DNA of 64,000 nucleotides from a virus. Taxonomy: Duplodnaviria; Heunggongvirae; Uroviricota; Caudoviricetes. A program made the translations under genes and the position numbers. This document shows, in pieces, positions 3,286-51,206 of this stretch. Location: IMG/VR virus record IMGVR_UViG_3300045253_000164, positions 26,314 through 90,313 of that record; one strand, 5' to 3'. The notes beneath the pieces are model-generated. The model did no database searches. It saw nothing but the letters and a program-made list of their open reading frames with translations, and was not told the DNA's origin. Numbering within the stretch: the first letter of the stretch is position 1; every line of letters starts with the position of its first letter.

Positions 3286-3362
3286 ACCGACATTGCGCGG
3301 AGTATGCCGCCGGGCGTTGCGTGGATCGGGCCGCAAGTCTCGGAGGTGCGTGCTGGGTGTCG

Positions 3363-35650: not shown

Positions 35651-37093
35651 CTACCCTTCCACCATACGATCGCCGACCGCCAGCATATCCACGCCCAACT
35701 GCCGCGCCGTACCTTCCGCGTCGGTCACGGTGTTTGCCATCGCCTGCCCGTGCCCGTTGAAGCTGGTGTTGAGCAGCATCGGCACACCCGTTGCGCAACC
35801 GAACGCCGCGAGGATGTGACCGAGCACAGACGACTCGTCGACGAGCTGCACACGCGCCGACCCGTCGGCGTGTACAGCGGCCGGCGCCAGCCGCCGCATC
35901 TCCTCGGTGGCCTGGCAGATCGTGGTCATGAACTCGTAGGCGCCGGGATCGATCAGGTCGAAGTAACGTCGGGCGTGTCGACGCAGCACGACCGGCGCCA
36001 CCGGCCGCCACGGCGCGCGCTGCTTCATCTCGTTCAGCCGGCCCTTGATGGCGAGCGATCGCGGATCCGCCAAAAGCGAGCGATGACCCAGCGCTCTTGG
36101 TCCCGACTCAGCGCGGCCGTTCACCAGCGCGACGATCTGCCCCTCGAGCAGCGCGTCGACGACGCGATCAACATTGGGTGTGCCTTCCAATCCCGGCTCC
36201 GTCCAGCCGGCAAACGCCACCTGCTCCACGGAGTACCGTCGGCGTGGCTCTCCCAGGATCCGATGCAGGACATACAACGCTGCCCCGATGGACAGGCCGC
36301 CATCGTCGCACGCAGGAGGTACCCATGCAGCGGGAACATGACCGGAGCGGAGCAATGCATGCACGGCAATCCCGTTGAGCGCGCAGCCGCCGGCGATCAC
36401 CACCGGACGCCCTGCAGGCACGAGCTCGTGGAACGCGTCGATCGTCTGGGCCTCGAGCGTCGCCACGCGCGATCGGACGGCGGGGTCCATTCCCGTTCGA
36501 GCGGTGAAATCCTCCGCGGGAATACCGAGCAGCGCCATGACGGTGCCTTCTTGAAACTGCCCGCCGCAGATCTGGTGGGAGGCGTCGTTCCAGGCGCCCC
36601 CGATACCAGGGCAGGGATGCCAGCGGATGCCGAAGGTTTCGCCGTTGCCATTGCCCACTGCGCAGGTGATCACCTTGAGCCCTTCGGGCGTCTTGTAGGC
36701 GTCGCCGCCGCCGTCCAGCGCGAGAATCGAAGCCTGGTCGTAAGGACTCGTGTAGTAGGCATACGCGGCGTGGGCCGTGTGATGAGGAATGCCGAAGGCG
36801 CGGCGATCTCCACCGAGCACGCAGCTCGAGCGGTCATCGAACTGCATCAGGTCGTCCCAGCCGTTGCGCGTAATGCCGAACATCCCCGATACGCCGGCCA
36901 TATAGGTGATCTGCTCCCGGGTGATCCCGATCAGTCGGCAGGCGTCGTCGACCTGCTCCATCGGTGCTAGGGTATCGTGCCGGATGCGGGTGAAGCGCTC
37001 GCGCTCGAAGTGGACGATCTTGCCGTCGCCGACAATGGCGAAGCTGCCGTCGTGGCCCTGGTAAGCGCCCAGCACGTAGATGGGGTCAGCCAT
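35651..37093 (-). CDS. NodU/CmcH-family O-carbamoyltransferase
   Basis: 480 aa; IPHHTAHAAYAYYTSPY, ESGPRALGHRSLLADPR and MLLNTSFNGHGQ match the conserved carbamoyltransferase N- and C-domain motifs. Confidence 0.75.
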   Translation of the reverse strand: MADPIYVLGAYQGHDGSFAIVGDGKIVHFERERFTRIRHDTLAPMEQVDDACRLIGITREQITYMAGVSGMFGITRNGWDDLMQFDDRSSCVLGGDRRAFGIPHHTAHAAYAYYTSPYDQASILALDGGGDAYKTPEGLKVITCAVGNGNGETFGIRWHPCPGIGGAWNDASHQICGGQFQEGTVMALLGIPAEDFTARTGMDPAVRSRVATLEAQTIDAFHELVPAGRPVVIAGGCALNGIAVHALLRSGHVPAAWVPPACDDGGLSIGAALYVLHRILGEPRRRYSVEQVAFAGWTEPGLEGTPNVDRVVDALLEGQIVALVNGRAESGPRALGHRSLLADPRSLAIKGRLNEMKQRAPWRPVAPVVLRRHARRYFDLIDPGAYEFMTTICQATEEMRRLAPAAVHADGSARVQLVDESSVLGHILAAFGCATGVPMLLNTSFNGHGQAMANTVTDAEGTARQLGVDMLAVGDRMVEG

Positions 37094-37096
37094 CCG

Positions 37097-37369
37097 CTAG
37101 ACTTCTTCCCATCCGCACAACCACAGTGTGTCGAGATTATCGCTGCGGCCGGCCAGTACCACATCCACCATGACATCAATGTCCCTGATGCGCAGGCCGA
37201 ACAAAACATTTGCCGTCTGAACGCAGAGATGAAGCGCGGCTTCCGCGGATCGCGACAAATTGCCACCGACAGATACCGCTGCCTCAATCAGTGACCACGG
37301 ATTCAACCCTCGATAGGGATTCACGCGGTTGCTCAGTCGGTGATCGATGCGAATCCAATTCTGGTTCAT
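37097..37369 (-). CDS. hypothetical protein
   Basis: 90 aa from internal ATG 37369 (MNQNWIRIDH...), with ATGA overlap to the upstream stop. Confidence 0.35.
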   Translation of the reverse strand: MNQNWIRIDHRLSNRVNPYRGLNPWSLIEAAVSVGGNLSRSAEAALHLCVQTANVLFGLRIRDIDVMVDVVLAGRSDNLDTLWLCGWEEV

Positions 37370-38376
37370 GCCAACAACTCCACCAGCCGCGCCACATACA
37401 GCGCCCTGGCCTCGCTGGTGTGCCACTGCGCAAACCAAGCGTGTCCAGCCTTGGCGATGTCCAACGCCCGCTGCGGCTCGTGAATCAACGATTCCACTGC
37501 GGCGCCCACCGCCTCTGGAGTGAGCGCGTACACACAATGCACGCCGTCCACGAACGGCTTCGGAATCTGGATCCTCGGGGATTCGATCACCTGGCACACA
37601 GCATAGGCAAATTGCTCCCAGACACGATTGCAGTCCCAGTTCTGGACGTAGGGGAAGCCGTTCCACGAAATCCCCACCAGCGCCTCGGTCATCTGGGTGT
37701 GGTAGTCGACCGGCAGCAGGTTGGTGGCGCGGCTCGTGTGGAGACCGACGTTCAACGTGTCGCCGTACGGCATCCTCCGGCGCAGGTCATCGACGATTTG
37801 CCGCCGCACGGCGCCGGCGCCGTCGAGCGTGTCGCCATGGCCGCTCGCATGGTAGAAAACCCGTACTAGCTTGTGCACCGGCGCCTGAGGGATACGACTA
37901 GCCGGATACATCAGCGGCAGCGGCAACGCCCAGGTCGCGCCGATCGGGAGCTCGCGCTTGAAGTGCGCGGTCAGCGGCCGTCCCGCGAGCGAGCGGTACC
38001 AGTCGCCGTTGTTGACACCGAAGGCGTCGCCCAGATCGCAGGCAATCACCGGCTTGGTGCGAGGCCACGCGCGCAGCAACGGCTCATGCGCGCGCATGTG
38101 ATGGTCACCGGGTTGCGTGGCGATGCAGAGCACGTCACAGCCATCCATGACGTCCATCGCCGTATGCCCCTTGCGCGGCCAGTCCTGGTCGGAGTCGTAA
38201 GGGCACTCTCGGCACACCGGACACTCCGCCGTCTCACGTGGTCGGTGCAGGGAATCGGACTCCGGCACCGCAAACACGTTGTCGATGCCGAGCGTGGCGT
38301 AGAAGCCACCCAGCAGGAAGTCCGCGCCCAGGTCGTGAGAGTGGGCGCGCGGGGACATGAGGTAGAGGACGCGCAT
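37366..38376 (-). CDS. GT-B-like putative glycosyltransferase paralogue (family of 3)
   Basis: 336 aa MRVLYLMSPRAHSHDLG...AGHAWFAQWHTSEARALYVARL; paralogue of 31715..32722 and 44661..45644. Confidence 0.35.
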   Translation of the reverse strand: MRVLYLMSPRAHSHDLGADFLLGGFYATLGIDNVFAVPESDSLHRPRETAECPVCRECPYDSDQDWPRKGHTAMDVMDGCDVLCIATQPGDHHMRAHEPLLRAWPRTKPVIACDLGDAFGVNNGDWYRSLAGRPLTAHFKRELPIGATWALPLPLMYPASRIPQAPVHKLVRVFYHASGHGDTLDGAGAVRRQIVDDLRRRMPYGDTLNVGLHTSRATNLLPVDYHTQMTEALVGISWNGFPYVQNWDCNRVWEQFAYAVCQVIESPRIQIPKPFVDGVHCVYALTPEAVGAAVESLIHEPQRALDIAKAGHAWFAQWHTSEARALYVARLVELLA

Positions 38377-38377
38377 T

Positions 38378-38692
38378 CTACTTCGTCAGCTCAGCCAATC
38401 GCTCGCGCAGACCTGGGAGTCGTGCGGCCTGCTTCTCGACAAATTCAATCTGCGCGGTCACTACACACATTTCGCACCAGGCCACTGGACGACACCCATG
38501 AGCAAACTCCAACGCTGACAACTGTTCGCCGCTCCACCACTTTGTGCCTGGTCGCGTCTTGCAATTCCCGCAAAGTGCCTGTCCGTCAGGTTTTCTGAAG
38601 TAGGCCTCCTGGGGAATGTACGACCCCACATCAACCACGTAACCCGCCTGCGCGCCGCTGGCCGTTATCTGCCCCACCGAGTAATCGCTCAC
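38378..38692 (-). CDS. small Cys-containing hypothetical protein
   Basis: ~104 aa from GTG 38692 (GTGA overlap with the upstream stop); CGNC...CEMC. The 5' part of the tracked ORF overlaps the next gene and is rejected. Confidence 0.25.
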   Translation of the reverse strand: MSDYSVGQITASGAQAGYVVDVGSYIPQEAYFRKPDGQALCGNCKTRPGTKWWSGEQLSALEFAHGCRPVAWCEMCVVTAQIEFVEKQAARLPGLRERLAELTK

Positions 38693-39624
38693 CGCAGCCC
38701 CATCCCTTCCAGCACCCGCCGCAACCGATGCTGATACGAGTCGCGCCCGCGCACCAACTCGTACGCCCGCTGCGCCATGCCGCCGTCGCCTTCCCGTCGG
38801 AGTCGACGCACGGTGTCGATGAGCCACTCGGGATCCGGCATCCCTTCGCCGCCTGGTCCTGGGATGGGATCGAAGCCGATGAAGTGCTCGCCATCGTTGA
38901 ACAGCTTCAGCGTCGACGGGTTCCTGTCGGCAATCACCACGCATCCCATGGCCATCGCCTCGAACACCCGCGTCGTCACGAAGTCCAGCGTAGAGCAACA
39001 ATAGGTGGCGAGGCTGTTCTGATAGGCGCAGGCGTACAGCGGTCCCCAGACATCACCGAAGAAGGTATGGATATCGGGGGCGCGCTCACGCACGGTGTGC
39101 CAGATGTGCTGGCGTGCCTCGCGGGCGCTGGCCAGTTGGACCAGGTCGTATTCGCGGGAGGCGCCGGAGAATGACGCGCAGTACGGCGGGATCCAGTGCT
39201 CGTCGGCGTCGAACGCCTTGGGCAGCCACTGCACGCCGGCGTCTGCGCCGTTGCACATGATCTCCGCGTAGCGATGCGGCGTTAGGCCCCGCGACCATTC
39301 CATCGCGGCGCCTTCGGAGTCGATGTGCGCCCAGGGAATGTCGGGCAGGTCCCCGTCGGCCCAGCGCAGGCCTTCGCCGCCACTGGCAATGATCGCGCAG
39401 TCGAGAGGTTCAGTGAAGTTCAGCACCGCAATTGTCTCGCGCCACGGGACCGGCATGCTCGTATTGAGAAACGCCTGCGGCTCGCGCCCCCGCGTCCCCC
39501 ACGGCTCCTGGTCGCGCCACGGGCCAACGGTAACGACCTCATGACCGAGCTGCCGCAGCGCCCGAAGGTAGTAGTATGGCAACCCGCAGCGCCGGTGCCA
39601 CGTGCCGAGGAGCAGGATTCTCAT
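38689..39624 (-). CDS. GT-B fold glycosyltransferase (GT1/GT4-like, CgeB-like)
   Basis: Start at MRILLLGTWHRRCG (ATG 39624). The C-terminal DFVTTRVFEAMAMGCVVIAD parallels that of 30672..31718. Confidence 0.55.
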   Translation of the reverse strand: MRILLLGTWHRRCGLPYYYLRALRQLGHEVVTVGPWRDQEPWGTRGREPQAFLNTSMPVPWRETIAVLNFTEPLDCAIIASGGEGLRWADGDLPDIPWAHIDSEGAAMEWSRGLTPHRYAEIMCNGADAGVQWLPKAFDADEHWIPPYCASFSGASREYDLVQLASAREARQHIWHTVRERAPDIHTFFGDVWGPLYACAYQNSLATYCCSTLDFVTTRVFEAMAMGCVVIADRNPSTLKLFNDGEHFIGFDPIPGPGGEGMPDPEWLIDTVRRLRREGDGGMAQRAYELVRGRDSYQHRLRRVLEGMGLR

Positions 39625-39781
39625 GTCGTTGGATACCTGTGATACATTCGGCACATCATGTGGGCAGGTAATAACCCACTAACGCCGCCCCACATTGGCT
39701 GCCACGGCCACACAAACCAGCCGCACAAATAGCAAACATGGTTGTGGTAATAGTTCGCGCCGTCCGACCATCCCTGCGATC

Positions 39782-40705
39782 TCACTCCCGCACCTCGGCA
39801 CTGCTGATCCCATCGCTGAGCCCGTGGTAGGCCTTGCTGACCGCCCAGCAATCCACGCCAACGAAGTAGTGCGCGCGGGCCAGCATCTCGAAAAACGCCG
39901 CATCGCCCACGCCGTGTCGATTGTCCTCGCCCCAGTACTCGACATTGTTGGGGCCGTGGACGCGGCCATACTCGACCCACACCAAACACGCCCCCAGACA
40001 GTTGACGCGGTGCATCACCTGGTTGTGATCACAGCGTCCATCGACGCCGTAGCGCATCAACCCAGGACGCCAGAAGCCCTCTTCAACCCAGGATGCGTGC
40101 GTGTCGGGATCCACCCCGTCGTCGTACAGCGCGCGAAAACTCGCGCCGCCGTTCAACGCGGCGCGCGGGCCGGTCGGCAGCGGGAAGTCCGCCGTCAGCG
40201 GCTGCGGAGGCCCGCTGTTCTGCCACTGGTTGCGGGAGCCATCGGCGCCAAACTGCACTGATCGCAGCCGCCCGTACACGACGTGTTCTTGAGGGTGCGC
40301 ATCGAGATACTCGGCCCGCAGTCGGACACTGTGCGGGTGCAGGACGTCATCGTCGCAGAGATACGTCAGGTACCGCTCGTCACGCCGCAGATGATTCAGC
40401 CCGATGTTGATGGTCCTCGAGTAGGGGATCGTCGCCTTGCGCTCGGCCATCGTGCGATCCGGTCCCATCCACCAGGTCACGCGATCGGTGCTCACCGCGA
40501 CGCCGCCGGCGACGTGCTGCTCGGAGTCCCACGCGGTGAGGCCCTGGGCGTCACGAATGGCGGCGCGCGCCTCAGGATTGCAACCGTCGTCGAGCACAAG
40601 TAACCGCCAGCGGTCGCAGTCCTGCGCCAGCACCGAGGCGATCGCCGCCGCCACCATGCGCGGCCGGTTGTAGGTGGTCAGCAGCACCAGGGTGTCGCGG
40701 CTCAT
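39782..40705 (-). CDS. family-2 (GT-A) glycosyltransferase
   Basis: LVLLTTYNRPRMVAAAIASVLAQDCDRWRLLVLDDGCNPEA plus YLCDDDVL (DxD). Start at MSRDT (ATG 40705, ATGA overlap). Confidence 0.7.
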   Translation of the reverse strand: MSRDTLVLLTTYNRPRMVAAAIASVLAQDCDRWRLLVLDDGCNPEARAAIRDAQGLTAWDSEQHVAGGVAVSTDRVTWWMGPDRTMAERKATIPYSRTINIGLNHLRRDERYLTYLCDDDVLHPHSVRLRAEYLDAHPQEHVVYGRLRSVQFGADGSRNQWQNSGPPQPLTADFPLPTGPRAALNGGASFRALYDDGVDPDTHASWVEEGFWRPGLMRYGVDGRCDHNQVMHRVNCLGACLVWVEYGRVHGPNNVEYWGEDNRHGVGDAAFFEMLARAHYFVGVDCWAVSKAYHGLSDGISSAEVRE

Positions 40706-41646
40706 TCCAGCCTCCGCACCATCGTCAGCCCGAAACCCCACGGGAGCGTCAGCACCTCGAACTCCGGGCGCTGCCGCAGCTCGTTCACCACGATCGCCAC
40801 GCCAGTGTCGGCGTTCGTGGCCGCGCCGTTCTCAAAATAGTCGTGCAGCAGACAGAGTCCGTTGACGCGAACGCGGGGCAGGTAGCGCTCGACGTCAGCC
40901 CGCACCTGGGCCTCGCTGTGATCACCATCGATCCAGAGCAGATCGAGCGTCTCGGGCGGCTCAAAGTCGTTGGAGTTGATCACATGCAGCGCCCACCATT
41001 GGCTCAGCTTGGCCTGGTCGACGTAGCACGCGGCCTTCTCGGCAGCCTCTGCGTCGCACTCCAGCGAATGCAGGAGTCCACCTGTCTCGCGCATGGCGTA
41101 GAGCAACGGCATCGTCGAGATGCCTTCACGTACGCCGATCTCCAACACCACTGGCGGTCGTACAGGTCCCCGAGATTCGGGGTCGGGCCAGTTGACCCAC
41201 TTCGCAATGCTGTAGAGCACCAGCAAGTGCGGCCGTGAGTCGTAGAAGTCGCCGGCCTCCGTCCACCAGGCAGTGTCCCGGCTCAGCGCCACGAGCTCGG
41301 CGTCGCCGAACGGGCCGCGCCAGGGAGCGTTGACGCCGCCCCCCGATGGTCGCGGACTCCCGGGGCGTATGGCGCGTTGGAGGTCCACGCGTTCCGCCGC
41401 CAGCGAGAAATCCAGACGTCGTGGCGCGGTCAACGGCGGCGGTAGAATCGTTGCCCGCGTCGGTTGCAGCGTCGGCTGCGCCAAGCTCACCGGCGCCGAG
41501 CGTGGCGCAGGTGTCTGGGCAACGCTAGTCGCGAAGCGCAGGAAGAAGCTGAGGCCTGTGCGGGCGATCAGCTCTACCTGGTCCGGTGCGAAGCGATCGG
41601 CGAAGGTCGATCGCATCGCGGATTCGAATTGCTCGGCGGCGCTCAT
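40702..41646 (-). CDS. class I SAM-dependent methyltransferase (TylF/MycF-like, probable O-methyltransferase)
   Basis: LEIGVREGISTMPLL (motif I), LLWIDGDHSEAQV...LLHDYF. Confidence 0.6.
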   Translation of the reverse strand: MSAAEQFESAMRSTFADRFAPDQVELIARTGLSFFLRFATSVAQTPAPRSAPVSLAQPTLQPTRATILPPPLTAPRRLDFSLAAERVDLQRAIRPGSPRPSGGGVNAPWRGPFGDAELVALSRDTAWWTEAGDFYDSRPHLLVLYSIAKWVNWPDPESRGPVRPPVVLEIGVREGISTMPLLYAMRETGGLLHSLECDAEAAEKAACYVDQAKLSQWWALHVINSNDFEPPETLDLLWIDGDHSEAQVRADVERYLPRVRVNGLCLLHDYFENGAATNADTGVAIVVNELRQRPEFEVLTLPWGFGLTMVRRLE

Positions 41647-41873
41647 CGCGGATGTCCAGCGTCACAGGCCCACGACGTGGAGCTGCCGACCTCGAAGGCG
41701 TCGTGGGGCCACCACGAGGCACGAATTGGTACGACGGTGATCGATGTACCGTGCGTCAACTCCCTCGCGAGGAAATAGCGCGCGCGGGACACAACGCAGA
41801 AGTCTGCTCCTGGATGCGCAGCCAGCGCGGCACAGAGCCGTTCGCGGAACACTTCGTCGGTCATCTGGTCCAT
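41643..41873 (-). CDS. hypothetical protein
   Basis: 76 aa, translationally coupled between the two MTase paralogues. Confidence 0.35.
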   Translation of the reverse strand: MDQMTDEVFRERLCAALAAHPGADFCVVSRARYFLARELTHGTSITVVPIRASWWPHDAFEVGSSTSWACDAGHPR

Positions 41874-41876
41874 GGG

Positions 41877-42674
41877 CTACAGCTCCACAATCCGGTCGTC
41901 CGGCTCGAAGGCCGGCGACAACACCCGCACCAACGTCAGGCCGAATGAAAACGGTAGTGTCAAGATCTCATAGCACCCCGTCTGCCGCAGCTGTTCCACG
42001 GCGGCGCTGACGTAGCTCGGGAACGGCGGCTGAATCGGCGGATCGCACGGCCAGGGCTTGGAGTAGTAGTCGTGCAGCGCAATGAGCCCTCCGGGCCGCA
42101 CCTGCGGCACGAAGCGCTCGACGTCCTTGCGCACCTGGTCGAGGCCGTGATCGCCGTCGATCAGCAGGAAGTCCAGCGGCCGCCCCAGCGTTGCGCAGTC
42201 GAAGTCGTCGGAGCGCTGGATGCGCAGGTCCCACCACGGCGTCAGCTGGGCCCGCTCGATGACGTCAGCCGCGGCACGCGCCCAGTCCGGATCACACTCC
42301 AGTGACACCAAGCGCCCATTGGCTTCGCGCATCGCGTGCAGCAGGTTCAACGTGCTGACGCCATGACGCACACCAATCTCCAAGCAGAGCGGTGGTCGTA
42401 GCGGCCGCGGCGCGCGGGGGTCGGGCCAATTGATGTTCCTGGCCAGCGCGTAAAGGATCGGCCCATGCGCACGCACATCGAACCAGTCGTCGACGCTCTT
42501 GCCATCAGGGCCGGTGTTGATGAACGCGCGGGTGTCGCGGCTCAGCGCCAGTAGCATAGCGTCATCCCAGGTGGCGCTGGTGACACTGGCGGACGCAGGG
42601 GGGACCGCTGCGGGCACCGCCACCGATGATGGCGGTGTCCCGCAGCGGAGACGATAGAGGGCGTCGAGGTCCAC
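41877..42674 (-). CDS. class I SAM-dependent methyltransferase (paralogue of 40702..41646)
   Basis: CLEIGVRHGVSTLNLL, FLLIDGDHGLDQV...ALHDYY. Confidence 0.6.
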   Translation of the reverse strand: MDLDALYRLRCGTPPSSVAVPAAVPPASASVTSATWDDAMLLALSRDTRAFINTGPDGKSVDDWFDVRAHGPILYALARNINWPDPRAPRPLRPPLCLEIGVRHGVSTLNLLHAMREANGRLVSLECDPDWARAAADVIERAQLTPWWDLRIQRSDDFDCATLGRPLDFLLIDGDHGLDQVRKDVERFVPQVRPGGLIALHDYYSKPWPCDPPIQPPFPSYVSAAVEQLRQTGCYEILTLPFSFGLTLVRVLSPAFEPDDRIVEL

Positions 42675-42681
42675 GGCTTAT

Positions 42682-43032
42682 TCAGACCGTCCAGATTTCC
42701 ACGTCCACCTGCGTCGCCGCGGTGATGGGTAGCGTGATGATGGACGGGCGCGACGGCGTCGGTCCCTGCTGAGGCACCGGCATTTTGTTCTGTGGGGTCC
42801 ATGTCTTGCCGTCGGGTGTCTTGACGATCACGTTCATTTCGCTCGCGCTGCTGGCCTTGATGACCTGATACTGCGCGACCGCGGACAGCGGGTTCAGCAC
42901 GGCGAGTGTCGTCGTGTCCATCGCTACCCACGAGAACGTCGTGCCCGAAGGGAGATCACGGCGGCTGCCGTCCGACATGACCGCGACCGCGCGGACGCTG
43001 ACGACCTGACCGAGTTGCAAAAGGGTGCTCAT
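42682..43032 (-). CDS. bacterial Ig-like (Big_2-like) domain protein
   Basis: 116 aa; LQLGQVVSVRAVAVMSDGSRRDLPSGTTFSWVAMDTTTLAVLNPLSAVAQYQVIKASSASEMNVIVKTPDGKTW fits the Big_2 pattern. Confidence 0.45.
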   Translation of the reverse strand: MSTLLQLGQVVSVRAVAVMSDGSRRDLPSGTTFSWVAMDTTTLAVLNPLSAVAQYQVIKASSASEMNVIVKTPDGKTWTPQNKMPVPQQGPTPSRPSIITLPITAATQVDVEIWTV

Positions 43033-43035
43033 GAC

Positions 43036-43428
43036 TTACTCCTTCTCCCGCAGCAAGCGGGGCTGTAGTTGCGTGATTCGAGACGCGTGCCATTGACCGC
43101 GGCGCTGACGTTCCGCCATGAAGGCGTCGGCAACGTCGAACGCGGCGATCACGATCAGCTCGCTGGCGCGCTCGGCTCCGACCGCCTGTTTCGCAGCGGT
43201 CGCAAGCTCCGGATCAGTAGCCATGCGTGCCAGCAGCACCATGGCGCACTCGTCGCGGAGCGCAGTGTCGGGGTCGTGGCCGTTGAGAACGGTTCCGGTG
43301 GTAGGGCCTATGCGTTCCATCCTGTCCTTCCTACTCGCGCACCTGCAGGTCGGTCCGATGGCCGTGTGCGTGGTAACAGTCGGAATCGAGCCATCACTCG
43401 CGCCTGCTCGGATCACTTCGGTGTCCAT
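43036..43428 (-). CDS. hypothetical protein
   Basis: Tracked ORF 43036..43542; plausible starts at ATG 43428 or 43320; C-terminal helical region. Confidence 0.3.
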   Translation of the reverse strand: MDTEVIRAGASDGSIPTVTTHTAIGPTCRCASRKDRMERIGPTTGTVLNGHDPDTALRDECAMVLLARMATDPELATAAKQAVGAERASELIVIAAFDVADAFMAERQRRGQWHASRITQLQPRLLREKE

Positions 43429-44338
43429 ACGGATGCCCGTATCGCTTGACCACCACGACGTCCGGGACGCTGTGAAAGGGACCGAGGCCGGCGAGCTCCA
43501 GGCGATAGAACCAGCCAGCGTCAGGACAGTCGAAGCGCTCACCAGGCAACCACGATTCCGAAAACGGCGCGTCGTCTATTTCTTCAAGTTGCCGGATGCG
43601 TCCATGCTCTTCATACCGAAAGATTTCCCGCGTTCGCGTTTCTGGCCATTGCGGAATACTCATCGGCAATCCGGCCAAGCCGCCATAGATGAACCCGTCG
43701 GGACCTGTATGCTCAAGCATGTTCGGTACACGCCGCACCATCGGCATCCCGTGGTCACAGCGGTTGGCGATGCGCGCCACGGGTTCGGCGGAGTAGAAGC
43801 TGTTGCGGTCATGCTTGCACTTGCCAGCGCCCTGAAGGAACGACGGCAAGCTGGGTCGTACCCCAAATTCGCCACAGTCAATCCCCTCAGGCAACGAATG
43901 CAGTCCCATTGCTGGCATGGGCGACTTACAGCTTTCCAGCCGCCCGTAAACCACATTCACCTCGGGATGCTCGATCAAGTACCGCACCCGGACTTCGATG
44001 CTGCCCAGCGTAAGAAAATCATCGTCAGGTAAATAGACCACGAAGTCCCCGTGCACGCACGCCATCGCCGTGTTGATGCAGATGGCGCAGCGCTGACCGT
44101 GCTGGCGCTCCTCCGGCGTCGGCGGCGGTCCAGGCTGGACGCACAACAGGCTGCGACCCTCGGTGAAGCACGAGCCGTACTCGGCGAGCACGTCGTGCAC
44201 AGCGTGATCGCTCCAATCGTCGGCGACAATGACCTCGATGTTCGGCCAGGTCTGCGCGAGGATGCTGTCCAGCGCATCACGGATCAACGTTGGCCGATTG
44301 TACGAGCTGAGTACGACACTGACGAGCGGCTCGTTCAT
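43394..44338 (-). CDS. family-2 (GT-A) glycosyltransferase
   Basis: VSVVLSSYNRPTLIRDALDSILAQTWPNIEVIVADDWSD plus VVYLPDDDFL (DxD). Confidence 0.7.
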   Translation of the reverse strand: MNEPLVSVVLSSYNRPTLIRDALDSILAQTWPNIEVIVADDWSDHAVHDVLAEYGSCFTEGRSLLCVQPGPPPTPEERQHGQRCAICINTAMACVHGDFVVYLPDDDFLTLGSIEVRVRYLIEHPEVNVVYGRLESCKSPMPAMGLHSLPEGIDCGEFGVRPSLPSFLQGAGKCKHDRNSFYSAEPVARIANRCDHGMPMVRRVPNMLEHTGPDGFIYGGLAGLPMSIPQWPETRTREIFRYEEHGRIRQLEEIDDAPFSESWLPGERFDCPDAGWFYRLELAGLGPFHSVPDVVVVKRYGHPYGHRSDPSRRE

Positions 44339-44664
44339 GGCTTCTGCCCGTTCGGCACTTCCCGCACCCAGCCGAGCCCTTGCTGCGCCTGCGTGCGGTA
44401 GAAATCCGCGCGGCCCATGGCGCGAGCGAATTGCTCATCGCTCAGCGGGTAGGGCTGCATCCACTCGCGGCCCTCGGCATCGGCCACCGCTGCCTCGGCC
44501 ACCGCCATGCACCACTGCACCAACTCGCCGGGCTTGGTCGTCAGCGCTGCGGTGTTCGTCGCGGCGGCGCGCAGCAAGTCGAGCACGATACGAAAGCGCA
44601 GGTCGAGCTGGAGGCCCTCGTCGCGGTCGTTGCTGAGGGGACTGCGGAAGTACGGCGTGCTCAT
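44335..44664 (-). CDS. hypothetical protein
   Basis: ~110 aa from internal ATG 44664 (MSTPYF...), ATGA overlap; the upstream part of the tracked ORF is rejected. Confidence 0.35.
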   Translation of the reverse strand: MSTPYFRSPLSNDRDEGLQLDLRFRIVLDLLRAAATNTAALTTKPGELVQWCMAVAEAAVADAEGREWMQPYPLSDEQFARAMGRADFYRTQAQQGLGWVREVPNGQKP

Positions 44665-45644
44665 GCGGCCTCCGGGAGTGTACTGTGAATGGCGCACCAG
44701 ACTGTCTCGGCACGGTGGCGCGTGGTGTGGTGACGGAGCCACCAGGCTTGCGCAACCTCCGCCAAGGCATGGGCGGCTATTGAGTCTGCCAGGAGCTGTT
44801 GCACAATGCGGAGAGCCTTGTCTGCGGTGCGAAACAGCGGAGTGACAATGCCCGACAGGCCCTGAATCCCGCAGGGAGCACCCGCGCGTGGTTGGTGACC
44901 ATCCTCCAACACCGGGCAGCACCCATCCGCGATGATCTCGAGGTGCCGGTTGGTGTGGTAACCAAGCCCCGCCGGCGACACGGCAATCAACGCAGACCGA
45001 TTCGCGGCGTGATTCTCCGCAACGTCCCACCGGGAACCGTCGGGCGGCATGACCACGCCCAGCTCGCGCAACCCTTCGCGCAACTGAGCTCGCGTCGAGT
45101 CCGGCGTGCACCAGTCCCACAGATGGGCTGAGTACACGACAGACGGCTCACGCTCGCCCACGGGCACCTGCCGTGAGGCCGGATAGCCGAAGGGCAGGGA
45201 CGTCGCCCAGTTCGCGCCCACCGGCAGTTCGCGCTTGAAGTACGCCACCGGCGCGGCGCCGAGGCACTCCGTGAACAGCGGCTGCGTGTTGTGCGGGTGG
45301 TCTTCAGCATCGTACGCGACGAGGCGATCGCGGGAGGCGTTCAGCAGCCCGGCACGCGCCCAGCTCCGCAGTTGCGACCGTACCTCGCCACGCACCGTCG
45401 GTACGATCACGGCAGCGAACGTCCCGTCGCGCAGGGCTTGCGCCACACGCTCGGCGCTCCAGTCGTGCTGGGGTCGATGCAGATCGCAGTCGAACGTCGC
45501 CGGAGCACCCTCGGACAGATGCAGCGACGGCTTCGGCGGCCAGTCGATCACGTGACCATCACCGAGCAGCTCGCAGAAGCCGTCGTACAGATAGTCCGGG
45601 CCGTAGTCCGGCGACGGATCGGTAAGAAACAGAATATCAGGCAT
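44661..45644 (-). CDS. GT-B-like putative glycosyltransferase paralogue (family of 3)
   Basis: Start at MPDILFLTDPSPDYG (ATG 45644). It shares the N-terminal and C-terminal (AQAWWLRHHTTRHRAE) signatures with 31715..32722 and 37366..38376. First gene of the island operon. Confidence 0.35.
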   Translation of the reverse strand: MPDILFLTDPSPDYGPDYLYDGFCELLGDGHVIDWPPKPSLHLSEGAPATFDCDLHRPQHDWSAERVAQALRDGTFAAVIVPTVRGEVRSQLRSWARAGLLNASRDRLVAYDAEDHPHNTQPLFTECLGAAPVAYFKRELPVGANWATSLPFGYPASRQVPVGEREPSVVYSAHLWDWCTPDSTRAQLREGLRELGVVMPPDGSRWDVAENHAANRSALIAVSPAGLGYHTNRHLEIIADGCCPVLEDGHQPRAGAPCGIQGLSGIVTPLFRTADKALRIVQQLLADSIAAHALAEVAQAWWLRHHTTRHRAETVWCAIHSTLPEAA

Positions 45645-45882
45645 GGGCGCGCGCCGGGGACCGGCGACCGTGGGTGGGGCCATGTCAAAAGCGCGGGTAA
45701 CGAGAGATGGTTCATGTGTCAAGCGGTTTCCGTGCGATGATCGTAAAGATGGCGCCGTGCAGCGCTGGGAGGACCGGATGCACTTCCCAGATCGACCAAC
45801 CGGCGGACTCCAGGGCGTTCAACTGCTGCTCCAGATAGAGCTGGTCGACGTTGGCTTGGATCTTCCAGGTATACGGCATCGT

Positions 45883-46206
45883 TCACTCCCGCGAGCGCAC
45901 AAAGACGCGGTGCTGGCCCCAGGTCGACGCGGAATCGGTGACCTCGCGAAGTTCGCCAAGTTCAACCATTCGGTCCAACGCGGCCAGCGCGAGCCAGGAG
46001 TCACCGATCATGACGTGGCTCGATTGGAATGCCCCAGCCTTCCCCAACAGGTCCTGGACCTTGTCGCGAATAGCCAGGAAGCTGCGCTGTCCGTCTTCGG
46101 TGAACAGTCGGTCCCGCTGGCCGGCATAGCTGTATCCCGGCCGCTCTGCTTCATGGGCGCGCATGGCGGCAAGCCTCCCTTCTTCTCTGGCAATGGCTTT
46201 GCACAA
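45883..46206 (-). CDS. hypothetical protein upstream of the island
   Basis: 107 aa; its 5' end abuts the GCACAA(A/G)AGC motif cluster. Confidence 0.35.
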   Translation of the reverse strand: MCKAIAREEGRLAAMRAHEAERPGYSYAGQRDRLFTEDGQRSFLAIRDKVQDLLGKAGAFQSSHVMIGDSWLALAALDRMVELGELREVTDSASTWGQHRVFVRSRE

Positions 46207-46259
46207 GAGCTAGCACAATCGCGCCTGCTTTTGTGCAGAAATGGGCGCCGCACAAAAGC
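46197..46259. promoter_or_regulatory. operator-like motif cluster: TTGCACAAGAGC, plus perfect inverted repeat GCTTTTGTGC-N13-GCACAAAAGC
   Basis: Seen directly in sequence; GCTTTTGTGC at 46227-46236 and GCACAAAAGC at 46250-46259. The same GCTTTTGTGCAGA 13-mer recurs at 47968. Confidence 0.45.
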
Positions 46260-46320
46260 TCGGCGTGATCCCCAGCTCGTACATCATATACTAGAAGTAT
46301 AGCCAAGGCAAGGGAAATCT

Positions 46321-46380
46321 ACCGAAAGTTGCGAGTTTTCTTCGTACCGCAGAAACCGCGAGTTGACTTCATACCGTAAC
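46321..46380. repeat. two imperfect ~30-bp direct repeats in the AT-richer divergent intergenic region
   Basis: ACCGaaAGTTGcgagttTTCttcgTACCG versus ACCGcgAGTTGacTTCaTACCG. Confidence 0.4.
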
Positions 46381-46381
46381 T

Positions 46382-46579
46382 GTGAGACAAGGGCGCATGC
46401 CACGGAAAGAGCGCACCGTTACAATCTGGGTGTGCAACCGCTGCGATCACGAGTGGCAGTCGCGCACCGATGAGGAACCGACGGTCTGCGCAAACTGCAA
46501 GAGTCCGTATTGGGACAAGCCGCGCCGCAACGCGGTCCCGAAGAAGACGCACCGAGGTGGAAAGCATGCCGCAGGTTGA
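46382..46579 (+). CDS. zinc-ribbon protein
   Basis: 65 aa, GTG start; CNRCDHEW...CANCKSPYW (two CxxC). It overlaps the start of the downstream MTase. Confidence 0.45.
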   Translation: MRQGRMPRKERTVTIWVCNRCDHEWQSRTDEEPTVCANCKSPYWDKPRRNAVPKKTHRGGKHAAG

Positions 46580-47534
46580 ACTCGCTGATCATGAATTAGG
46601 GCCAGCGGCGGCGCGGATGGACGACGGAGTTGCCTGGAAGGTGCAGAAGGGCGACGCCTACGATCTCCTACAGAAAGTTGCGCCCGCATCCGTCGACTTG
46701 ATTTTAACAAGGCCGCCCTATTGGGGGCATCGCTCATACGGGCAGGATCACAACTGGAACACGCTCCGCGAATGGCTGGCGACTAACAAGGATGCGGTCA
46801 CCATCCCATCCTACGAGTGGTATCGCGCACAAGGCGGCGTGCTTGGGCTGGAACCGCTGCCCGAGTGGTACGTGGCCCACATGGTCGAAATTTTCGAGCA
46901 CGCCCGCACCTGCATGAAGCCCACGGGAAGCATGTGGGTCAACATGGGCGATACGTACTTCGCGCGCTGGGCCAGCATCCGCGAAGGTGGTCGGCAAGGA
47001 CTCGGCGGGAATCCGCGCGCGCGGCGGCGCACGCCAATGGGCGGATACCGCCAGGAAAAACAACTCCTCATGGTGCCGGCGCGCTTCGCAATAGCGATGC
47101 AGGACAGCCGCTGGATACTCCGCAACGACCTGATTTGGTACAAGCCCAATGTTCCACCCCGACCCGAGTCGGATCGCCTACGCTTGGCTCACGAACACTT
47201 CTTTCACTTCGTGAAGCGACCGAAGATCGGGCGGGCCAAATATTACTATGCCATCGACCAAGTTGAACCTGGCACCACTGACGTGGTGACCTGTTACGCC
47301 AGCGCCGGTGGAAACGGCCACAGCGCCACATTTCCAGAGAAGCTGATCCGACCGCGCATCCTGAGTTCCTGCCCGGCAGGTGGCCTCACGATTGATCCCT
47401 TCTGCGGGACGGGCCGCGCGCTAACGGTCGCTGTCGAATCAGGCCGCCGCGCCATTGGCTTCGATTCTTCGGCAATGTATGTACGGGCAACACGTGCTGC
47501 ATTGCAGAAGCTGAATGCCGAAGCGCACAAATAA
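46566..47534 (+). CDS. amino-(N6A/N4C) DNA methyltransferase, beta-class
   Basis: Start at ATG 46566 (MPQVELADHELG). Motif IV DLILTRPPYW comes first; motif I IDPFCGTGRALTVAVESGRRAIGFDSS is near the C-terminus. Confidence 0.7.
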   Translation: MPQVELADHELGPAAARMDDGVAWKVQKGDAYDLLQKVAPASVDLILTRPPYWGHRSYGQDHNWNTLREWLATNKDAVTIPSYEWYRAQGGVLGLEPLPEWYVAHMVEIFEHARTCMKPTGSMWVNMGDTYFARWASIREGGRQGLGGNPRARRRTPMGGYRQEKQLLMVPARFAIAMQDSRWILRNDLIWYKPNVPPRPESDRLRLAHEHFFHFVKRPKIGRAKYYYAIDQVEPGTTDVVTCYASAGGNGHSATFPEKLIRPRILSSCPAGGLTIDPFCGTGRALTVAVESGRRAIGFDSSAMYVRATRAALQKLNAEAHK

Positions 47535-47693
47535 GCCGCGCACTCCTCGCAAGCGTCCCACCGCCGCGAAGAAGCCGCCGCGCGACAAGGGCCAACGAGC
47601 AACTACGATACGCACACCGGTGGAACACCCACCGACGGCGAGCTGTGCAACCAGTGCAAGGGGAAAGAGAAAGACGGGAAGTGCGACTAGCGC

Positions 47694-47954
47694 CTATGCG
47701 TCGATAGCGCGCGCGACTGTCAGCCGCAGAACCGCCTTGTCCCCCGCGAACCACAATTCCCGGATATGCCGGGCGTAAGCGACGTTCCGCTGTCGCGCGA
47801 ACTCATCGAAGCAGAACAGGCAGACGACGCGGTTGAGGAGTCTGGGCGGCACCACCGCCGCCCAGACCTCATCTGGCACGCTGAAATCAAACTTATCCGG
47901 AAACCCGCACATCTTGCAGGTCTGGCGCTGGCGATTGTCCCCAGGTCGCTTCAC
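47694..47954 (-). CDS. hypothetical Cys4 protein
   Basis: 86 aa; CKMCG...CLFC. Confidence 0.35.
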   Translation of the reverse strand: MKRPGDNRQRQTCKMCGFPDKFDFSVPDEVWAAVVPPRLLNRVVCLFCFDEFARQRNVAYARHIRELWFAGDKAVLRLTVARAIDA

Positions 47955-47967
47955 TCAAGCACCTTGA

Positions 47968-48015
47968 GCTTTTGTGCAGACGGCCGAGCTATTGTGCGGG
48001 AGCCAGCTATTGTGC
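47968..48015. promoter_or_regulatory. operator-like motif cluster: GCTTTTGTGCAGA, GCTATTGTGC x2
   Basis: Three spaced copies of the GCT(T/A)TTGTGC motif just upstream of the start of gene 47694..47954. Confidence 0.45.
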
Positions 48016-48261
48016 AAAGCCTCTGGCAATCAGCCTCTTCGTGCTTTCGATTAGGCGATCTGGAATGAAGGCATCACAAATCATCGCGCAGCTCCTTTCG
48101 CGCAACTTTGCATCCACGCCAGAAACGCCCGCCAGCACGCGACGCACAGGTGCATCTTGGTCACGTTCCACGCCTCATTCGTCGGCGGTGAAAAAGCTAA
48201 GCCGCCTGGAGCATCCAATTCCTGAGAGCACCGCGCGCACGTGACCTTGATCATCGCTCCC

Positions 48262-48720
48262 TCACCACGAGTTGATCAGCGCCCGGTGGCTGCGCTGACA
48301 CGTGACACCCGTACCCACCACCAGCGTGCACTTCTGCGCCCGCAGCAGCACGGCGTACGAAGCCACAGGCCGATAGCTCAACGTGGCCACCACGGATACC
48401 AACGGCGCGCCGTTGAGACACAGCACAATCAGCGTGAACCGCAGCCGCGCGCCGGCACGATGTGTGGACGAGGCCACCGCGCACTCGGTGTCGACGTTGG
48501 TGTCCAACAGCTGCAGATCGGCAAATCGATCCGCGGGGTAATCCACCATCAGCTCGTAGGCCAATGCATCACCGGGAAGCACCGGCAAGCCATCGGGCAC
48601 GTCGATGTCCACCGCCGCATCCCCGACGGGCACGATCAGCGCCGGCACGCCCTCGTGGAGCTCGGCGTGTGCGGTCAAGGCCGTGACTAACAGTGTGACA
48701 ACGACAATCGTGCGCATCAT
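48262..48720 (-). CDS. secreted protein (signal peptide)
   Basis: 153 aa from ATG 48720: MMRTIVVVTLLVTALTAHA has a hydrophobic core and an AHA cleavage site. The 5' part of the tracked ORF is rejected. Confidence 0.45.
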   Translation of the reverse strand: MMRTIVVVTLLVTALTAHAELHEGVPALIVPVGDAAVDIDVPDGLPVLPGDALAYELMVDYPADRFADLQLLDTNVDTECAVASSTHRAGARLRFTLIVLCLNGAPLVSVVATLSYRPVASYAVLLRAQKCTLVVGTGVTCQRSHRALINSW

Positions 48721-48986
48721 GCCGCCTTCGTCCGCGATGTCCGCTTCGCGTGCCGTTGCGTTGCGGGGTTCCACAATCGGCCCACGCGGCAGGCGTAACA
48801 ACCAGGACCGCACGGGCAGCGCTCTGTCTCGATGCCCGACGTCGTCACCCGGCGCGCCGCCACTGGCAGTGGTTGGCCGGGATGCCAATCCTTCGTACGC
48901 CGGAGTTGATCGATGGTCCGTGCATCGGCTTCCCGGACCGTACCGAACGCGTGCGTGCCTGGTGACCACGTCGTCGCCATAGTCAT
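48717..48986 (-). CDS. small Cys-rich protein
   Basis: ~89 aa from ATG 48986; CPCGPGCYAC; ATGA overlaps at both ends. Confidence 0.35.
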   Translation of the reverse strand: MTMATTWSPGTHAFGTVREADARTIDQLRRTKDWHPGQPLPVAARRVTTSGIETERCPCGPGCYACRVGRLWNPATQRHAKRTSRTKAA

Positions 48987-49990
48987 CGCCCCATCCCCTC
49001 CTGCACCCAACTCGGCGGCAGCTGTTTCGTGATCTCAATCTGCGCAAAGCGCGTCGGCTCCTGGGGGCCGCGCTGGCGCGCCCAATGCGCCATTTCGGCG
49101 AGACCCAGAGCGAGCGGCGTTGACGGTCGGTCGCCGAACACACGGCGGAGCTTGTCGTGCGTACAGTAGGCGTCCCGCACCTCGACGCGCGCCGGCAGAT
49201 GGACGAACGGCGCCTGGGGCATGCCCATTGCCGCCGCTGTCAGATAGGCAATCTCGTTGATCGTGTATGCGGTGTCGGCGCCGACGTTGAAGACCTCCCC
49301 GCAGACGTCGGGTCGGGTCACCGCTTCCGCGATCAGCGGCGCGACGTCCGCGATGTAGCTGAACGCCCGCGTTTGGTTGCCGTCGCCGAAGATGGTCAGC
49401 GGCTCCCCGCGCAAGAGCTGGTTCATGAAGATACCGATGACGTTCCGGTAGCGGTCGCCGATGTGCTGATGTCCCCCGAATACGTTATGAGGACGGAAGA
49501 TCACCGTCTCCAAGCCGAACAGCCGTGCGGCCGTCGCCAGGTGTTGCTCGACCGCGTACTTCGCGATGCCGTAGGGGTCCTCGGGCTGTGGCTGCGTCTC
49601 CTCGGTCATCGGCACCGGCGCCGCGCCATACACCGCCATGCTTGAGGTGAACACGAAGCGCTGGACCCCATGGTTCACTGCAGCTGCAATCAGGTTGCAC
49701 GAGCCCACCAGGTTGTTCTCGTAGTTGAACCGGGGAATGAAGTGGCTGAGCCCCTCCGCGGCATACGCAGCCAGGTGACACACCGCGTCGAAGCGATGGT
49801 CGGTGAACACGCGATGCACGAAGAACGGGTCCGTGATGCTGCCCTGCCAGAAGCTCGCCGCGGGCGGCACGTTGTCCAGAAAGCCGCCGCTCAGATCGTC
49901 GACCGCGCACACCTGATGGCCGGCCTTCAGCAGCTCGGCGGCGACGTGAGACCCGATGAAGCCTGCGGCCCCGGTGACCAGGACGTTCAT
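48983..49990 (-). CDS. NAD-dependent NDP-sugar epimerase/dehydratase (extended SDR)
   Basis: MNVLVTGAAGFIGSHVA (Rossmann GxxGxxG), YGIAKY (YxxxK). Confidence 0.7.
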   Translation of the reverse strand: MNVLVTGAAGFIGSHVAAELLKAGHQVCAVDDLSGGFLDNVPPAASFWQGSITDPFFVHRVFTDHRFDAVCHLAAYAAEGLSHFIPRFNYENNLVGSCNLIAAAVNHGVQRFVFTSSMAVYGAAPVPMTEETQPQPEDPYGIAKYAVEQHLATAARLFGLETVIFRPHNVFGGHQHIGDRYRNVIGIFMNQLLRGEPLTIFGDGNQTRAFSYIADVAPLIAEAVTRPDVCGEVFNVGADTAYTINEIAYLTAAAMGMPQAPFVHLPARVEVRDAYCTHDKLRRVFGDRPSTPLALGLAEMAHWARQRGPQEPTRFAQIEITKQLPPSWVQEGMGR

Positions 49991-50211
49991 GCGGCCCTCC
50001 GCTGACGACAGTCAGGGCAGCGAGAATGCCCATCGGTCTTGCCGCCACACTGACCGCACAACCCCGCAGCGCGGCGTCGGTGGTAACGGTTCAGCGTACG
50101 GGTCTTGGATTTCGCCGAGCATTGGCGGCACAGCACGCGGTTGGCAGGACGCGGCGCGCCGCACTTCTCGCAGAGTCGGAGTTTGCGCCGGCGGCAGAGG
50201 ATGCAGCTCAT
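49987..50211 (-). CDS. small zinc-ribbon-like Cys-rich protein
   Basis: MSCILCRRRKLRLCEKCGAPRPANRVLCRQCS...CGQCGGKTDGHSRCPDCRQ; the ATG at 50211 overlaps the upstream TGA (verified in sequence). Confidence 0.4.
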   Translation of the reverse strand: MSCILCRRRKLRLCEKCGAPRPANRVLCRQCSAKSKTRTLNRYHRRRAAGLCGQCGGKTDGHSRCPDCRQRRAA

Positions 50212-51179
50212 GCCGCCCTCCGCTTTTCCATTCCCAGCTGCCGCGCCTGGTCGTCCACCACGTCCCGCACGATGTCCTCCCAGCGGTCCACGAAGCTCAG
50301 GCCCGTGAGGCGCTGGAGCTTGGTCGTGTCCGGAACTCGGCATTGCATCCGCTGCCACGCCAAGTCGCCGGTCTCTTCCCAGGGGATGTGGTTGACGCCC
50401 TGCGGCAGCACGCCGTACCGCTCCATCACGTCGAGCTGGATCCGCAGCGCGGCGGAGCGCATCGACAACCGCGGCTCAGTGGCACCGACGTTGACCACCT
50501 GGCCCACGGCCTCGGGGGTCTCGGCGAGCGCCAGCAGTGCCCGCACCGTGTCGCTGACGTGCGTGAAGCAGCGTTCCTGCTGTCCGGTGCCGTGGATCGT
50601 GATCGGCTCGCCCTTCAACGCAGCGCGCGCGAAGATCGGTAGCACGAACGCGTGGCGTTGGCCCGACCCGACGCAGTTGAACAGCCGGGCGATGATCGCT
50701 TGGGCGCCGCCCTCCGCATGACTGGCCAGCGCGACGTGCTCCATCGCCAGTTTGGACACCGCATAGCCCCAGCGCGGATGGCAGGAGGGACCGATCACGG
50801 ACTCGTCGACGTCCTCGCGAAACGGCGGCGACGTGTTGGCGCCGTAGACCTCGGAGCTCGAGGTGAAGACAATGGGGCAGCCGGCATACATCGCTAGGCT
50901 ACACAGGTAAGCCGCATCATCGGCGTGTTCCGTCATCATGCGGAACCGCAGGCGCACCACATCGGCAGGCCCCACTATGGCTGCCAGATGAAAGATGGCG
51001 TCGAGCTTCCCCAGACCGGCTTCCCGAACGTCGCATTGACGAAAGTCGATGGCGGGACTTCCGGGCGGCAACGGGTGGTGATCACAGCCAGCCACGTCCC
51101 ACCCCTCGGCCACCAGATGCCGCGCCAAGTGCTGCCCGATGAATCCCGACACTCCCGTAATCAACGCTCGCGTCATCAC
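50208..51179 (-). CDS. NAD-dependent NDP-sugar epimerase/dehydratase (extended SDR)
   Basis: MMTRALITGVSGFIGQHLA, YAVSK. Confidence 0.7.
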   Translation of the reverse strand: MMTRALITGVSGFIGQHLARHLVAEGWDVAGCDHHPLPPGSPAIDFRQCDVREAGLGKLDAIFHLAAIVGPADVVRLRFRMMTEHADDAAYLCSLAMYAGCPIVFTSSSEVYGANTSPPFREDVDESVIGPSCHPRWGYAVSKLAMEHVALASHAEGGAQAIIARLFNCVGSGQRHAFVLPIFARAALKGEPITIHGTGQQERCFTHVSDTVRALLALAETPEAVGQVVNVGATEPRLSMRSAALRIQLDVMERYGVLPQGVNHIPWEETGDLAWQRMQCRVPDTTKLQRLTGLSFVDRWEDIVRDVVDDQARQLGMEKRRAA

Positions 51180-51206
51180 AACCCCTCCACCACCAGACCA
51201 GCGGCG

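Follow-up and report, generated by a model that had tools for sequence, protein, structure and literature searches.

GCTWTTGTGC motif clusters in a Caudoviricetes genome as the probable ends of an IS903-like transposon carrying an orphan methyltransferase

The locus described here lies in a 64,000-nucleotide stretch of a Caudoviricetes virus (IMG/VR record IMGVR_UViG_3300045253_000164, positions 26,314 to 90,313), referred to below as the window. This phage genome has a GC content of 64% and mostly minus-strand genes. Gene calls were taken from Logan contig L252, which is identical to the window over 36566–50045. Between 46195 and 48021 lie plus-strand genes for a small zinc-ribbon protein and a DNA methyltransferase, and a minus-strand gene for a protein of 86 amino acids (aa). 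A cluster of GCTWTTGTGC motifs stands at either end of this segment, and a minus-strand gene for a 93-aa protein lies beyond the left cluster. An initial annotation had taken the clusters for a common regulator-binding site upstream of the two small minus-strand genes, bracketing the only plus-strand block. By the L252 gene calls, the block is the only one within 36.5–50 kb; a test of third-codon-position GC (GC3) over the whole window was too noisy at 64% GC.

The motif occurred five times without mismatch in the window, against an expectation of 0.22, and none of 100 shuffles reached five copies. With up to one mismatch, seven matches were found where 6.6 were expected by chance for the whole window. 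All seven were confined to 46201–46259 and 47968–48015, so that their clustering, not their number, is the non-random part. Random frequency without positional bias, which the initial annotation had named as refuting it, was thus not what the scan of the window returned. The 13-mer GCTTTTGTGCAGA was present at 46227–46239 and 47968–47980, the perfect inverted repeat GCTTTTGTGC-N13-GCACAAAAGC spanned 46227–46259, and the right cluster held three direct copies at 47968, 47988 and 48006, all as previously described. The third half-site of the left cluster also exists, but at 46199–46210 (TTGCACAAGAGC) instead of 46197, and a fourth site at 46213–46222 (GCGATTGTGC on the minus strand, one mismatch) had been overlooked. 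Loose two-site DNA patterns gave hundreds of chance matches in viral contigs, none with three clustered sites.

The outermost motif site of each cluster was part of a 16-bp terminal inverted repeat, in which 46195–46210 matched the reverse complement of 48006–48021 at 15 of 16 positions. The termini read GGCTTTGCACAA(G/T)AGC, and the exact 12-mer GGCTTTGCACAA was found in the window at the two tips only, inverted to each other. A perfect 9-bp direct repeat, TCTGGCAAT, abutted both tips (46186–46194 and 48022–48030). The enclosed 1827 bp had a GC content of 60.1%, compared with 64–65% in both flanks, and an imperfect 27-nt inverted repeat flanked the methyltransferase block. Such a combination of terminal inverted repeats and flanking direct duplication is the hallmark of an inserted transposon. 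We put the probability at roughly 0.88 that the two clusters represent the ends of an IS903-like transposon (46195–48021, 1827 bp) that has lost its transposase. The features of the two ends, with offsets counted from the respective tip and with the related elements L253, L258 and L266 described below, are as follows.

46186..46194, no strand: left copy of the target-site duplication, TCTGGCAAT, the same as 48022–48030, abutting the terminal inverted repeat
46195..46210, plus strand: terminal inverted repeat of the "RE" (transposase-proximal) end, GGCTTTGCACAAGAGC, holding site R1 at 46201–46210; 15/16 match
46213..46222, minus strand: extra RE motif copy, GCGATTGTGC, at +18; one-mismatch match
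46227..46236, plus strand: RE motif copy, inverted, at +35; exact, same place and orientation in L253, L258 and L266
46250..46259, minus strand: RE motif copy at +55; exact, same place in L253, L258 and L266
47968..47977, plus strand: LE motif copy at +44; exact
47988..47997, plus strand: LE motif copy at +24; exact, position conserved
48006..48021, minus strand: terminal inverted repeat of the "LE" (transposase-distal) end, GGCTTTGCACAATAGC, holding site L1 at 48006–48015; 15/16 match
48022..48030, no strand: right copy of the target-site duplication, TCTGGCAAT, the same as the left copy

Related phage contigs were reached through homologues of the 86-aa protein. In two groundwater phage contigs of 92–103 kb (L253 and L254), the 86-aa gene lay within a 4770-bp element. 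The L253 element was bounded by GGCTTTGCACAATAAG and CTTGTTGTGCAAAGCC, that is GGCTTTGCACAA(T/C)AAG, and by a 9-bp duplication, CGGCTGCGG. It carried genes for a 54-aa zinc-ribbon protein, two unknown proteins, a methyltransferase and a ribbon-helix-helix protein, together with a 432-aa transposase. In L258, a like element with the duplication CCTTGCTCA separated the portal gene from the protease gene in a lambda-like head module. The L253 transposase combined a DDE_Tnp_1 core (PF01609, 5.7e-26) with an N-terminal SWIM zinc finger, and matched NCBIfam NF033579 (IS5 family) end to end (1.9e-37). A search of one genome per species gave 79 loci matching this type of transposase, in Rokubacteria, Acidobacteria, Planctomycetes, Acidimicrobiales, Hyphomicrobium and DPANN archaea. 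Among the loci where both ends could be defined, L266, L284, L294, L297, L323 and L324 each had GGCTTTGC tips and a perfect 9-bp duplication, and the duplication of L271 agreed at 8 of 9 bases. Intact members of the lineage encoded a DDE transposase of 400–430 aa with an N-terminal SWIM zinc finger, usually alongside passenger genes, and the related elements with passenger genes measured 2.5–6.8 kb. In relatives, a methyltransferase gene sat beside a putative restriction enzyme gene within one element.

The arrangement of the motif copies was conserved between these elements and the window; overall, more than ten elements, drawn from three kinds of host, agreed in it to the base pair. At the transposase-distal end, direct copies of the core stood at +6, +24 and +44 in the window, L253, L266 and L284, and at +6, +24 and +45 in L323. 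At the transposase-proximal end they stood at +6, +35 (inverted) and +55 in the window, L253, L258 and L266. Each end contained a 9–10-bp core, TGCACAAWA, once at the terminus and two or three times in subterminal positions. The right cluster of the window is therefore the distal end, its left cluster the proximal end, and the palindrome at 46227–46259 the +35/+55 pair of the proximal end. The +18 position, occupied in the window, was empty in the related elements examined. The centre of the core varied by element (TGCACAA, TGCCCAA, TGCCTCA or TGCACAT). Copies within one element mostly shared the same variant, as would be expected of sites that co-evolve with their recognition protein; mixed ends do exist, for example at the RE of L253 (where the +55 copy is TGCCCAAAA) and in L323.

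The same end layout was found in bacterial, archaeal and phage elements that had neither the 93-aa nor the 86-aa gene. One phage-like contig, the AT-rich L345, had a GGGCTTTGCACAA...TTGCACAAAAA...TTGCACAAAAA end and the same transposase without the 86-aa gene, and no homologue of the 86-aa or 54-aa protein was present among the 79 genomic loci. Conversely, 86-aa homologues occurred without the repeats in L260–L263. The repeats therefore go with the transposase and not with the neighbouring genes. Since the sites keep fixed distances to the tips, the tips are flanked by a 9-bp duplication, and the layout recurs elsewhere without either gene, the bound protein is most likely the transposase and not a phage repressor. 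Judged from the sequences, the motif repeats are thus most likely transposase-binding sites. The initial idea that one protein binds both clusters was probably right, whereas the operator role for the two small genes found no support: the clusters lie upstream of these genes because the element inserted there.

Inside the element, the following genes and remnants were found.

46228..46290, minus strand: 3' remnant of a transposase gene, approximately its last 21 codons, overlapping the RE sites (tblastn)
46398..46579, plus strand: 60-aa CxxC...CxxC zinc-ribbon gene, first of the cargo operon (open reading frame)
46566..47534, plus strand: cargo gene for an orphan N6/N4 DNA methyltransferase of 322 aa (PF01555, 8.5e-33; phrog_67, 1.5e-40; weak CcrM-like match)
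47592..47690, plus strand: pseudogene remnant, C-terminal half of the 54-aa zinc-ribbon gene (tblastn)
47694..47954, minus strand: gene for the 86-aa four-cysteine protein with a GTG start, cargo by the LE (28 homologues)

The transposase remnant was recovered with the L253 and L258 transposases as tblastn queries (residues 409–429 and 65–85, respectively; 52% identity). It was colinear with L253, its DNA (...TCGGCGTGATCCCCAGCTCGTACAT) aligned with the RE of L253 and L266, and its overlap with the proximal end was precisely that seen in L253, L258 and L266. No transposase gene was found elsewhere in the window. Intact ends with a 9-bp duplication but without a transposase gene indicate a non-autonomous derivative and not an autonomous insertion sequence (IS). 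The second remnant, recovered with the 54-aa proteins of L253 and L258, covered residues 24–53 at 52–58% identity (E-values 8e-6 and 5e-7). Its frame at 47592–47690 had no start codon and no open reading frame of 20 aa or more, whereas related elements have an intact gene. Of what is present in L253, the window copy has thus kept the two ends, the 86-aa gene at 59–68% identity, one half of the 54-aa gene and about 21 transposase codons. No restriction enzyme gene adjoined the methyltransferase gene. A gene caller had started the 86-aa gene at an ATG, a choice that would leave out the invariant residues Q11, C13 and C16 and so speaks for the GTG start. The AlphaFold2 model of the 86-aa protein had a mean confidence score (pLDDT) of 87.7, and a fold search of this model against PDB gave no match (best E-value 2.1). 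Pfam, PHROGs and NCBIfam offered no family for the 60-aa, 86-aa, 93-aa, 55-aa and 57-aa proteins.

The 86-aa four-cysteine gene and a convergent gene for a 54–58-aa zinc-ribbon protein formed a conserved pair in many phage-like contigs. The pair was located at 47694–47954 (minus) and 47592–47690 (plus) in the window, at 8456–8891 in L253 and at 5066–5510 in L258, and was also present in L260, L261 and L263. It adjoined methyltransferase or putative restriction genes, or transposases, which were IS5-like in L253 and IS1-like in L261 and L263.

Several points weigh against the assignment to an IS903-like transposon. The match to the transposase remnant covers few residues, and its E-values (0.18 and 0.027) are weak. 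The L253 transposase scored 129 bits against NF033579, below the curated cut-off of 140, and was only about 25% identical to that of IS903 (residues 108–416). Classical IS903 has a single 18-bp inverted repeat per end and no passenger genes. Neither the methyltransferase nor the 60-aa gene of the window is related to cargo genes in L253 or L258, so that the history of the element may have involved cargo swap or deletion. Binding by the transposase is deduced from co-occurrence and position. Finally, an uninterrupted ("empty") target site was not found in any related phage: a search with the reconstructed 20-mer junction (CCTCCCTTCTTCTCTGGCAATCAGCCTCTTCGTGC) returned nothing from viral contigs and two unrelated chance matches from the metagenome.

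The operator reading holds that a phage or element repressor binds both clusters and co-regulates the 93-aa and 86-aa genes, in the manner of the left and right operators (OL/OR) around an immunity region. Two multi-site clusters about 1.7 kb apart that bracket an oppositely transcribed block would suit it, as would a perfect palindrome within a divergent intergenic region and a sigma-70-like match at 46311–46283 on the minus strand, just upstream of the left cluster. Both clusters had been placed within 30 bp of the gene starts. In the right cluster of the window, 14 bp separate the last site from the start codon of the 86-aa gene. For the 93-aa gene, the ATG at 46164 and not the TTG at 46206 is the most likely start, as judged from a GGGAGG site, an independent call of a 93-aa gene and the point where homologues begin. 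The left cluster therefore lies approximately 37–95 bp upstream of this gene and does not overlap its start. The site offsets were fixed to the transposon tips and not to the gene starts: the distance from the tip to the 86-aa start was about 118 bp in L253, compared with about 67 bp in the window. No motif was found upstream of the homologues of the 93-aa gene in ten diverse phage contigs (L001–L010), and the repeats were likewise missing from the 86-aa homologues of L260–L263. No protein in or beside the block matched a helix-turn-helix or ribbon-helix-helix family. The layout recurs in bacterial and archaeal elements that have neither gene, and an operator leaves the target-site duplication unexplained. 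We consider the operator reading to be largely refuted already, and very improbable as it stands.

A different operator-like arrangement was observed in the relatives. In L253 (11642–11787) and L258 (approximately 7302–7400), repeated GCTAC...GTAGC palindromes such as ATAGCTACAACGTAGC and GCTACACTGTAGCTAT precede a ribbon-helix-helix gene of 48–54 aa, the first gene of the methyltransferase operon in related elements. These palindromes look like a genuine operator arrangement, of the sort that the initial annotation had proposed but absent from the window.

A second alternative is that the 86-aa four-cysteine protein binds the repeats, either as an accessory transposon factor or as an autoregulator of its own gene. 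In the window, L253 and L258, its gene immediately adjoins the three-repeat end on the inner side, and the AlphaFold2 model suggests a confident small zinc-binding fold. In PIF/Harbinger elements, which are related to IS5, a separate DNA-binding, Myb-like partner protein serves the subterminal repeats. The identical layout of 6/24/44 and 6/35/55, however, was present in elements without the gene (L345 and all 79 genomic loci), and the gene was present without the repeats in L260–L263, twice beside IS1-like transposases. The model also lacked a match to a DNA-binding fold in PDB. There is therefore only a slim chance that this protein is the reader of the motif.

That the segment is invertible, with the inverted repeats as crossover sites at which a site-specific recombinase flips the methyltransferase block, is hardly credible: a 27-nt imperfect inverted repeat does surround the only oppositely oriented block of the region, but there was no serine or tyrosine recombinase gene between 43 and 51 kb in the window, the direct 9-bp flanking repeat signals transposition and not inversion, and the homologous elements encode a DDE transposase. 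Together with the invertible segment, a lambda-like OL/OR region, control of restriction-modification by a C protein and replication-origin iterons were dropped as candidates in view of the terminal repeats, the duplicated 9-mer and the relatives that encode a transposase. The observed clustering is far from chance, and the operator reading is replaced by transposon ends with an orphan methyltransferase as cargo.

The transposon interpretation suggests a mechanism. The core copies would be bound by the transposase, probably through its N-terminal zinc-finger region, and the unequal layouts of the two ends could give them their identity within an asymmetric synaptic complex. Cleavage at the GG tips would be followed by a 9-bp staggered cut of the target TCTGGCAAT. 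The insertion would thereby have delivered the orphan methyltransferase to the phage, where it is plausibly useful against host restriction. The window copy would become mobile again only if a cognate transposase were supplied in trans.

The element inserted in an intergenic spacer between two co-directional phage genes, both outside the element.

45883..46164, minus strand: flanking phage gene, 93 aa (gene call on L252)
48081..48254, minus strand: flanking phage gene, 57 aa, zinc-ribbon-like (gene call on L252)

About 20 bp separate the insertion point from GGGAGG, the ribosome-binding site of the 93-aa gene. Transcription of this gene may now depend on read-through or start inside the element, at the sigma-70-like match (46311–46283). 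Members of the 93-aa gene family (L001–L011) were about 80 aa long with an M-x-Y-x-Y start, came from phage contigs of 38–69% GC and had no family annotation. A homologue search for the 57-aa gene found nothing.

The window also contained a large terminase gene (37–1908) and a capsid protein gene (24875–26122). Adjoining the terminase, a second methyltransferase of this phage was encoded at 1909–3414 (minus strand) as a 501-aa fusion of a ParB-like nuclease and a DNA methyltransferase. An unusually long block of sugar-modifying genes extended over approximately 33700–51200, with the transposon in its middle. Its members included a DegT-type aminotransferase, a carbamoyltransferase, several GT2 and GT1-like glycosyltransferases, Methyltransf_24 proteins and two NAD-dependent epimerases/dehydratases. 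Unusually for a phage, a 507-aa protein encoded at 57719–59242 (minus strand) began with a dockerin type I domain at its N-terminus (PF00404, 1.5e-6).

Other observations concern the wider lineage. In L258 (4872–5634), two left ends occurred in succession. The outer one, at 4872 and of the TGCCCAAAA type, was paired with the right end at 7744, and the inner one, of the TGCCTCAAA type, started at 4975. A 19–24-bp duplicate, TTACTCGGGCGTGGTCGG, at 4956 and 5611 bracketed the inner end and the 92-aa/54-aa gene pair. Such a double end could have arisen by nested insertion, by one-ended insertion or by recombination. A Planctomycetaceae metagenome-assembled genome (MFD03399.bin.2.103) contained at least seven near-identical 3.2-kb copies of the lineage (L301–L305, L311 and L315), several of which lay within another related element (GGCTTTGCACGTTTAT). 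The left flank of L301 was the right flank of L302, and the other flanks corresponded too, which indicates an IS-mediated inversion. In a metagenome-assembled genome of Candidatus Woesearchaeota (DPANN; L324, 1678–6996), the element had GGCTTTGCACAATAAG tips and a TGCACAAAA core as in the phage copies, with the perfect 9-bp duplication CCAAACTGG. Phage-like tips and core in an archaeal element indicate the same end specificity across domains.

Among known systems, the closest comparison is with IS903. The variant IS903B has inverted repeats GGCTTTGTTGAATAAATC and a 9-bp direct repeat (PMC10569121). IS903 and the window element have in common the GGCTTTG tips and the 9-bp target-site duplication, from which we call the element IS903-like; a DDE_Tnp_1 catalytic core is likewise common to IS903 and the transposases of the lineage. 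The best cultured-phage matches of the L253 transposase were annotated IS903 copies in HK022 and P7. The differences are also clear. The transposase of the lineage is extended at the N-terminus by about 105 aa that include the SWIM zinc finger, and each end carries the motif three or four times, always at fixed offsets. IS903 measures about 1 kb and has one open reading frame. The window copy, in contrast, has 1827 bp with cargo and no transposase, and its relatives have 2.5–6.8 kb. Of the traits that define IS903-like elements, GGC tips and a 9-bp duplication were present in the window, the DDE transposase was present in L253 and absent from the window, and the compact single-ORF form of about 1 kb was seen in neither the window element nor its relatives.

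An IS5-family element on the Klebsiella pneumoniae plasmid NZ_AP018454.1 (L346) had ends GGCTTTGTTGCACAA, with GGCTTTG and a TTGCACAA core as in the window, and a 9-bp duplication, ATATTGAAC. It differed in being a simple IS of about 1.05 kb without subterminal copies or cargo, whose 315-aa transposase was 27% identical to that of L253. A match related to L346 was named ISGNB1-1-like.

The ends of Tn7 and phage Mu contain several transposase-binding repeats that are unequal in number, spacing and orientation between left and right. By analogy, we infer that the ends of the window lineage may work in the same way, with unequal repeats giving left and right identity. Tn7 and Mu differ in their retroviral-integrase-type transposases (TnsB and MuA), their 5-bp target duplications and their need for accessory ATPases, none of which is present in the window element. 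With miniature inverted-repeat transposable elements (MITEs) and Ds-type elements, the window copy shares intact ends and target-site duplication and the loss of the transposase gene. It is larger than typical MITEs and keeps functional-looking cargo, namely the methyltransferase and the 86-aa gene.

More tentatively, the lineage could form an undescribed, cargo-carrying subgroup of IS5, with a SWIM-fused DDE transposase, GGCTTTGC tips, 9-bp duplications and three-site ends, distributed over bacteria, DPANN archaea and phages. The same proposal, which we regard as possible but on the doubtful side, would have the phage members carry restriction-modification or orphan methyltransferase cassettes and the conserved 86-aa/54-aa pair. 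In the literature, searched without ISfinder, nothing relevant was found on a SWIM-type IS5 subgroup, on GGCTTTGCAC ends or on subterminal repeats in IS5 elements.

For the phage, the annotation of the locus changes from a putative regulatory circuit to a transposon scar, and the supposedly sole plus-strand block becomes horizontally acquired cargo. The locus is a clear example of a transposon carrying defence or counter-defence genes into a phage genome; the orphan methyltransferase would probably protect the phage DNA from restriction. The window element itself is of an ordinary kind. Of the by-products of the analysis, the most interesting is the conserved three-site end layout, which may mark a subgroup of IS5 that has not been described. 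From this layout follows a model, open to testing, of the way in which a SWIM-finger transposase of the IS5 type distinguishes the left from the right end of its element.

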